The notes: a model not told the origin generated them from the sequence alone. Shown: positions 12,912 through 13,323, numbered from the stretch's first letter. The stretch: 64,000 bases of DNA from Escherichia coli (GCF_003334405.1 NZ_QOWM01000004.1), one strand, 5' to 3'. Made by a program: numbers and translations.

Positions 12912-13124
12912 ATGTCTAATAAAATGACTGGTTTAGTAAAATGGTTTAACGCAGATAAAGGTTTTGGCTTTATCACTCCTGATGATGGCAGCAAAGACGT
13001 TTTCGTCCATTTCACCGCCATCCAGAGCAATGAATTCCGCACGCTGAACGAAAATCAGAAAGTTGAATTTTCTATTGAGCAGGGGCAACGTGGCCCCGCG
13101 GCAGCGAACGTTGTTACGCTCTAA
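12912..13124 (+). CDS. cspG: Cold-shock protein
   Basis: Track ORF of 70 aa, [23 protein letters not shown] (RNP1 motif); long AT-rich leader upstream. Confidence 0.95.
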
Positions 13125-13323
13125 GGTTGCCATTATTACTCAACATCTCCATTTCCGCTGTCCATGTTGTCATGGTTCACAGTACCGCACATCGGCATTC
13201 GATGTGACGGAGCGAAACCCTTTGGGCGCTAAGTGTATTTTTTGTAAATCGACGATGATCACCTTTGATAACGTCGCGCTGCAAATACGCACTGACCATG
13301 CGCCGCTGGATTTCACAAAATAA
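13090..13323 (+). CDS. ymcE: Small Cys-rich protein; start codon uncertain (GTG 13090 or TTG 13111)
   Basis: Track ORF 13063..13323 overlaps the cspG 3' end in another frame; product contains CPCCHG...C..C motif. Confidence 0.55.

Follow-up and report, generated by a model that had tools for sequence, protein, structure and literature searches.

At the 3′ end of the cold shock gene cspG in Escherichia coli, an open reading frame (ORF) extends from within cspG, in a different frame from it, to beyond the cspG stop codon, and the questions raised by this locus are which gene the ORF represents, where its translation begins, and how its expression is related to that of cspG. The window analyzed is a stretch of 64,000 nt of E. 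coli DNA (GCF_003334405.1, NZ_QOWM01000004.1), and all positions are counted from its first nucleotide. A first-pass annotation had labeled the ORF ymcE and had proposed that it starts inside cspG, at GTG 13090 or TTG 13111, to encode a small Cys-rich peptide that could bind metal, with coupled or cold-dependent expression suggested by the out-of-frame overlap. We find that the ORF is the known gene ymcF, which is likely to be the second cistron of the cspG transcript and to start at AUU 13135–13137 rather than at GTG 13090 or TTG 13111, with a probable Cys4 zinc ribbon as its product.

Identity of the Gene Downstream of cspG

The ORF list confirms that the frame is open from 13063 to 13323 and that GTG 13090–13092 and TTG 13111–13113 lie in it, and the end of cspG at 13124 is given by both the ORF list and RefSeq. 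Many RefSeq E. coli chromosomes match the 521 bases from 12880 to 13400 with 100% identity, and this segment is found in 5,417 of 5,426 complete E. coli genomes; a coordinate in the RefSeq locus is converted to a window coordinate by adding 11,379. Features of the region are collected in Table 1.

Table 1. Features of the cspG–ymcF–ymcE region of the window
Feature	Position	Strand	Basis
cspG 5′ UTR, cspA-type cold thermoregulator	12756..12911	+	Rfam RF01766 cspA
cspG coding sequence, first cistron, 70 aa	12912..13124	+	ORF list; RefSeq "cold shock protein CspG"
Open stretch in the ymcF frame with TTG 13063, GTG 13090, TTG 13111, and ATT 13132	13063..13134	+	Judged not to be ymcF coding sequence
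TAAGG: cspG stop codon (13122–13124) overlapping the ymcF Shine–Dalgarno sequence AAGG (13123–13126)	13122..13126	+	Sequence reading
ATT, most likely ymcF start codon	13135..13137	+	RefSeq CDS start; PF23641 position 1; ATT/ATC kept in csp-linked loci
ymcF coding sequence, 62 aa, "cold shock small protein YmcF"	13135..13323	+	RefSeq WP_071524879.1; PF23641; codon-position variability
CPCC, residues 9–12, first zinc knuckle (predicted)	13159..13170	+	C9 and C12 invariant in the 42-sequence alignment
CIFC, residues 34–37, second zinc knuckle (predicted)	13234..13245	+	C37 invariant and C34 at least 90% in the 42-sequence alignment
ymcE ORF, 76 aa	13298..13528	+	RefSeq; NCBIfam PRK09891
Intrinsic terminator, 7-bp GC-rich stem, 5-nt loop, T run	13328..13352	+	Terminator scan; hairpin 13328–13346

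Counted from TTG 13063, the ORF encodes 86 aa in the ORF list. The Pfam family PF23641 (YmcF-like) matches this translation with an E-value of 5.5e-49, positions 1–62 of the 62-position model falling on residues 25–86, and since model position 1 corresponds to residue 25, the family begins exactly at ATT 13135. The 62-aa protein, named YMCF_ECOLI, is found with its exact sequence on at least 1,000 contigs. The NCBIfam equivalog for YmcE, PRK09891, does not match the product of 13063..13323 and matches only that of 13298..13528 (187 bits; cut-off 163), and RefSeq calls the upstream gene ymcF, so the name ymcE had been attached to the wrong ORF. YMCF_ECOLI, WP_071524879.1, and PF23641 represent the same gene, the DNA being 100% identical and the Pfam match full length, and RefSeq and UniProt already contain both the gene and the ATT start. 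The curated YmcF and the first-pass annotation disagree only in the label and in the proposed start codons. What had been flagged is therefore a mislabeled, already annotated gene.

The Part of the Frame That Lies within cspG

Translation from GTG 13090 or TTG 13111 would give a product of 77 or 70 aa that overlaps cspG out of frame. Both codons lie in the open frame, GTG 13090 is preceded by the Shine–Dalgarno-like GAGCAGGGG, and longer forms have been called before: by GenBank submitters with 77 aa (from GTG 13090) on 51 contigs, 86 aa (from TTG 13063) on 38 contigs, and 70 aa (from TTG 13111) on one contig, and by PGAP with 70–72 aa in some Citrobacter, Trabulsiella, and Kosakonia. Comparison with relatives argues against these starts. 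The distance over which the frame is open upstream of the FRCPCC motif ranges from 9 to 87 codons among the best 80 of 191 genome hits, and the open frame upstream of 13135 is no more than expected by chance. In at least 12 csp-linked loci, which include Kosakonia spp., C. amalonaticus, Citrobacter sp. MGH106, Siccibacter turicensis, Intestinirhabdus, and Pluralibacter, an in-frame stop codon is found 3–7 codons upstream of the ATT with no ATG, GTG, or TTG between them, and in Kosakonia it is the csp stop codon itself that lies in the ymcF frame, four codons upstream. Neither candidate start is conserved. GTG 13090 is a by-product of Arg-Gly codons specific to CspG, occurs in Escherichia only among the loci compared, and is absent from Citrobacter and Salmonella; TTG 13111 is a by-product of the conserved csp Val-Val codons (in Asn-Val-Val), is missing in many loci, and is TCG in E. 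albertii.

Synonymous sites in the 3′ end of csp would be constrained if this region also encoded YmcF. No extra constraint was found there in 29 sequences, mean entropy being 1.59 bits in codons 47–70 versus 1.34 bits in codons 1–46, which argues that the stretch is not YmcF coding sequence. The upstream extension (13063..13134) also lies outside the PF23641 model, the curated start is at 13135, and in relatives without csp the counterpart of ATT 13135 is an ATG start codon. An internal cspG start is accordingly judged improbable; the cspG-overlapping part of the frame is most probably not ymcF coding sequence, the proposed overlap is probably not real, and YmcF database entries of 70–86 aa should be read with caution. 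Calculated duplex energies with the anti-Shine–Dalgarno sequence do not discriminate between the starts, being −4.0 kcal/mol for the UAAGG before ATT 13135, −5.8 kcal/mol for the bulged GAGCAGGGG before GTG 13090, and −2.0 kcal/mol before TTG 13111, which has no Shine–Dalgarno sequence. It is thus the comparative evidence, and not Shine–Dalgarno strength, that leads us to reject GTG 13090, which may give rise to a minor 77-aa isoform specific to Escherichia.

The ymcF core has a clear coding signature: at the three codon positions, 17, 14, and 40 of 41 sites, respectively, are variable among 77 unique sequences, and 23 columns are invariant across 22 genera-level sequences in the ymcF frame, from which we judge the frame to be under strong purifying selection. 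This selection is hard to reconcile with the ORF being untranslated, a chance ORF in the cspG 3′ UTR, a view for which its noncanonical start codon and the fact that no PHROGs family was found for the product could be cited. The family is also kept across the Enterobacteriaceae and in lambdoid phages, its stand-alone members starting with ATG, and we consider an untranslated ORF highly implausible.

Database proteins of 115–143 aa that join a cold shock domain to YmcF (P0001–P0006, P0010, P0021, P0033, and P0056), together with the ymcF frame being open across the 3′ end of cspG, could be taken to indicate a CspG–YmcF fusion that arises where cspG ends, through either programmed frameshifting or readthrough of the stop codon. 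Nearly all of these fusions, however, occur on a single contig and are explained by one-base indels, and the frame relation between the two genes varies: in Escherichia it is +1 across a 10-nt gap, and in Kosakonia it is frame 0, the genes being separated by an in-frame stop codon and 9 nt. Neither a slippery site nor an RNA structure proved to be conserved at the junction, and the C. sedlakii protein P0021, which has VFVPS where VFVHF is expected and an internal ATG, resembles a product of csp decay. A programmed fusion is thus extremely unlikely. The C. sedlakii P0021 cluster comprises 20 member sequences with an in-frame deletion and the degenerate cold shock motif.

The Start Codon in E. 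coli and Its Relatives

Junction 41-mers containing ATT 13135 have an exact match in 5,128 E. coli genomes, and none of the complete E. coli genomes matches the same 41-mers with ATG replacing the ATT. Variation is seen in the preceding codon: of the exact 41-mer matches, 1,219 genomes have the K-12-like tandem ATT ATT at 13132–13137 and 3,909 have GTT ATT, and in all the tandem ATT occurs in 1,233 genomes and GTT ATT in 4,164, the majority of E. coli. Because GTT replaces the first ATT in most genomes, ATT 13132 is a minority polymorphism and ATT 13135 is the fixed codon.

Start codons were compared across relatives in the best 80 of 191 genome hits (one genome per species) and one phage locus, 81 loci in all. 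The codon homologous to 13135 was placed by counting back six codons from the invariant F of FRCPCC, and the upstream gene was classified for each locus. Where an intact csp gene ends 9–10 nt upstream (37 loci), the codon is ATT in 34, ATC in three, and ATG in none, and where there is no intact csp (44 loci), ATG is found at the homologous codon in 31 and at most three codons away in six, with ATT kept in seven, although the 81 loci are phylogenetically related and these counts overstate the number of independent events. The association between ATT and csp is imperfect within this set of the best 80 of 191 hits and the phage locus, as the seven csp-less or csp-damaged loci that retain ATT demonstrate: one is cut by a contig end (L005), two have a damaged csp (L019 and L028), three belong to a Pseudescherichia-like lineage with a csp remnant (L040, L062, and L067), and one is without csp (L074). 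We regard the presence of an ATT/ATC start next to an intact upstream csp as a modest extra observation, of which no description was found in the literature searched.

The ATG codons of the other loci have arisen in different settings. In Klebsiella and Raoultella, ATG occupies the homologous codon downstream of a decayed csp pseudogene with stop codons and frameshifts; in Atlantibacter, csp is likewise decayed and the ATG is one codon on from the homologous position; in one group of loci, the ATG lies three codons upstream (MKNTTQS...); in the Enterobacter, Leclercia, and Lelliottia group, the sequence upstream is unrelated and contains AGGAG; and in C. sedlakii, csp and ymcF are fused in frame, the cold shock domain being degenerate and the ATG internal. 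That the ATG solutions differ between lineages argues for several independent ATT-to-ATG switches. In three of the Klebsiella and Raoultella loci (L031, L043, and L050), the full-length decayed csp pseudogene is still recognizable ~230 nt ahead of the ATG that starts ymcF.

A small ORF was observed in L040 and L067, two of the loci that have lost csp and kept ATT. This 8-codon mini-ORF (ATG AAA AAA GGA YAC TAT TAT TAC TAA) lies ~20 nt upstream of position 2001, with its end 2 nt beyond the ATT, and is absent from the related L062; it might be a substitute coupling partner.

The cspG–ymcF Junction

The Rfam cspA model RF01766 matches 12756..13178 with a score of 159 bits, compared with a gathering score of 78, and an E-value of 4.5e-43. 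The match extends past the cspG stop codon and takes in ymcF from its start through codon 14, because the model spans the whole cspA mRNA. ATT 13135 is 10 nt past the cspG stop codon, with the Shine–Dalgarno AAGG 8 nt ahead of it. TAAGG or TGAGG is present in 16 of 16 aligned csp-linked sequences, the AGG is invariant in 11 diverse loci, and the gap between stop and start codons is 10 nt in all csp-linked loci (9 nt in Kosakonia), with a spacer sequence that varies freely. The csp–ymcF junction thus has the short, fixed gap, with a Shine–Dalgarno sequence at the upstream stop codon, that is a trait of translationally coupled second cistrons. The intrinsic terminator starts 5 nt past the ymcF stop codon and marks the end of the cspG–ymcF unit. 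Together, the thermoregulator 5′ UTR, the 10-nt gap, and the terminator suggest that ymcF is the second and last cistron of a cold-inducible cspG transcript, and in published transcriptomes ymcF moves together with cspG (PMC13058169, PMC11728337); in the literature searched, ymcF is mentioned in transcriptome lists only. Coupled or cold-dependent expression, as first proposed, is therefore plausible on account of the adjacency of the two genes and their coregulation, and not on account of the overlap.

We found no conserved RNA structure over the junction: RNAalifold gave a consensus energy of −0.43 kcal/mol and left the junction unpaired, and the fold of the E. coli junction has a z-score of −1.36. 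With no conserved structure masking the ymcF ribosome-binding site, coupling by unmasking is unsupported.

Probable Initiation at AUU beside a Cold Shock Cistron

Initiation at AUU reaches ~1–2% of that at AUG, and infC and pcnB are the only confirmed AUU starts in E. coli (10.1101/063800). With so weak an initiator, we infer that YmcF synthesis from AUU 13135 would depend on ribosomes that are translating the csp cistron, itself heavily translated, or terminating there, either by termination–reinitiation or by locally enhanced initiation. Such translational coupling to cspG would fix the ratio of YmcF to CspG at a low value in the cold, with YmcF tracking csp translation. In lineages losing csp, AUU would become insufficient, and ATT would be replaced by ATG with a stand-alone ribosome-binding site. 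If this coupling holds, the csp–ymcF junction is a compact natural system for the use of near-cognate AUU in the cold.

The closest known parallel in arrangement is infC, which like ymcF has a conserved AUU/AUC start just past an upstream stop codon (UAA GGU AUU for infC; UAAGGUUGCCAUU AUU for ymcF). At the thrS–infC junction, infC begins 3 nt past thrS, and about half of its translation is by reinitiation (PMC3592434), with part being de novo (PMC3592434, PMC5499595). Both genes are induced by cold stress (PMC3592434, PMC5499595), and the retention of AUU/AUC across species that characterizes infC is found for ymcF in 37 of 37 csp-linked loci (from the best 80 of 191 hits and the phage locus). 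The two differ in spacing, which is 3 nt for infC and 10 nt for ymcF, and the proteins are unrelated; IF3 autoregulation, the defining logic of infC, is hypothetical for ymcF.

The same parallel can be read another way, with gene and start codon as above and the mechanism alone differing: AUU 13135 might initiate by itself, de novo through AAGG, and act either as a throttle that keeps YmcF far below CspG or as a switch of the kind proposed for infC, sensitive to IF3 and permissive in the cold. The conserved ATT/ATC is the same pair as in infC, where IF3 autoregulation acts on the AUU, the AGG of the Shine–Dalgarno sequence is invariant, and the Pseudescherichia-type loci and L074 retain ATT without an intact csp. 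The replacement of ATT by ATG in most lineages that have lost csp, by several routes, is easier to explain if AUU alone yields too little protein. Published evidence on AUU and IF3 in the cold conflicts, pointing in opposite directions within one source (PMC5499595). IF3 discrimination against AUU is reported to be weaker at low temperature, which would favor autonomous initiation; in vitro, an AUU mRNA is more cold sensitive than an AUG mRNA and is translated especially poorly at low temperature, which counts against autonomous initiation and is also counterevidence to initiation at AUU 13135 coupled to csp. On balance, we think it rather unlikely that AUU 13135 acts alone, and prefer its coupling to the csp cistron.

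The conservation of AUU/AUC invites a further proposal, made here tentatively and with somewhat less than even confidence: the start codon could be a functional device that ties synthesis of a zinc-ribbon protein to ribosome traffic on csp and possibly also to the relaxation of IF3 proofreading in the cold that has been proposed for infC. ymcF could then be the third bona fide AUU gene of E. coli, with a switch from ATT to ATG upon loss of its partner. If this is correct, ymcF represents a natural case of a start codon that switches whenever the upstream coupling partner is lost.

The YmcF Protein

The YmcF-like family is narrow. An exhaustive profile search of 1.84 billion proteins returned 42 cluster representatives, from the Enterobacterales and their phages, and detected no distant annotated relatives that would hint at a function. 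Invariant or near-invariant positions are C9, P10, C12, G14, S15, Q16, Y17, R18, G31, A32, C34, I35, F36, C37, K38, and M41, and the conserved core FRCPxCxGSQYR...GAKCIFCK with its four Cys residues is identical in the window. The CPCCHG motif that had been noticed in the peptide is present (residues 33–38 of the 86-aa ORF; nucleotides 13159–13176). The outline of a Cys-rich, metal-binding product is borne out by four conserved Cys residues, C9, C12, C34, and C37, and the CPCCHG motif as such is not, since C11 and H13 vary in distant members of the family, H13 being replaced by Q, S, L, or G. The variation at C11 and H13 indicates that the ligand set is CPxC...CxxC, a Cys4 pair of zinc knuckles, rather than a Rieske-like Cys/His site, and YmcF is probably a Cys4 zinc ribbon that binds zinc through CPxC...CxxC.

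AlphaFold modeling gave a pLDDT of 61 with 22 close homologs and of 75.6 with 42 sequences, the core (residues 11–40) reaching ~90. The predicted YmcF core is made up of two knuckles and short beta strands. In a fold search, the nearest structures were generic zinc ribbons (the TFIIE-alpha zinc finger, the TFIIB ribbon, ribosomal eL43, and the NrdR N terminus) with nonsignificant scores.

Two more specific assignments were considered and dropped. A Rieske-type [2Fe-2S] protein, with its CPCHGS box, was rejected because neither H13 nor C11 is conserved and a CxH box I is missing; the similarity to the b6f Rieske protein is short and local, with an E-value of ~0.05, and a sequence search of the PDB returned chance-level matches only, to Rieske and UvrA CPxCHG motifs. 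YnfU/ECs_2282 (NCBIfam NF047912) is, like YmcF, a small protein linked to enterobacteria and prophages with paired CPxC/CxxC knuckles. Membership of YmcF in NF047912 was rejected, the match (E-value 0.003; 17.4 bits) being far below the curated cut-off of 37. It is YnfU, and not YmcF, that is the subject of Weaver et al.

ymcE and Phage Relatives

The ymcE ORF starts inside ymcF, sharing its last 26 nt, and then runs through the cspG–ymcF terminator. In four loci from other Escherichia (L002, L003, L004, and L034), the ymcE frame is broken by stop codons, frameshifts, or loss of the start codon, and the adjacent gnsA is intact. It may be that ymcE does not really encode a protein.

The order of the chromosomal cluster is cspG–ymcF–(ymcE)–gnsA, and a similar module, cspI–ymcF-like–ynfN–gnsB, is present in lambdoid phages. 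In Escherichia phage Tritos (L082, 1278–2337), the order is lysis genes, cspI, the ymcF-like gene, ynfN, and gnsB, and the junction reads TGA, ggtagacaat, ATT. Phage and chromosome share the order of the csp, ymcF-like, and gns genes, the TGA/TAA-GG, the 10-nt gap, the ATT, and a terminator after the small gene. They differ in that the phage copy lies beside lysis genes and is 68–71% identical, and in that ymcE is annotated on the chromosome where the phage has ynfN. The way in which the phage module mirrors the chromosomal cluster suggests an origin in, or exchange with, lambdoid phages. An IS1 element is found just beyond cspH, at ~11380–11981 of the window, beside the phage-like csp/gns cluster (L001 annotation).

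The ymcF-like ORF is unannotated in most of the phage records (H31–H37), and in the record of HannyBb an ORF has been called on the other strand in its place. When ATT is ignored as a start codon, gene callers either miss ymcF-like genes, as in most phage records, or extend them into csp.

The 3′ end of ymcF and the terminator (13281–13361) are matched weakly in Rfam by STnc220, a candidate sRNA of Salmonella (34 bits versus a gathering score of 60; E-value 0.0015), and this stretch could be a 3′-end-derived RNA.
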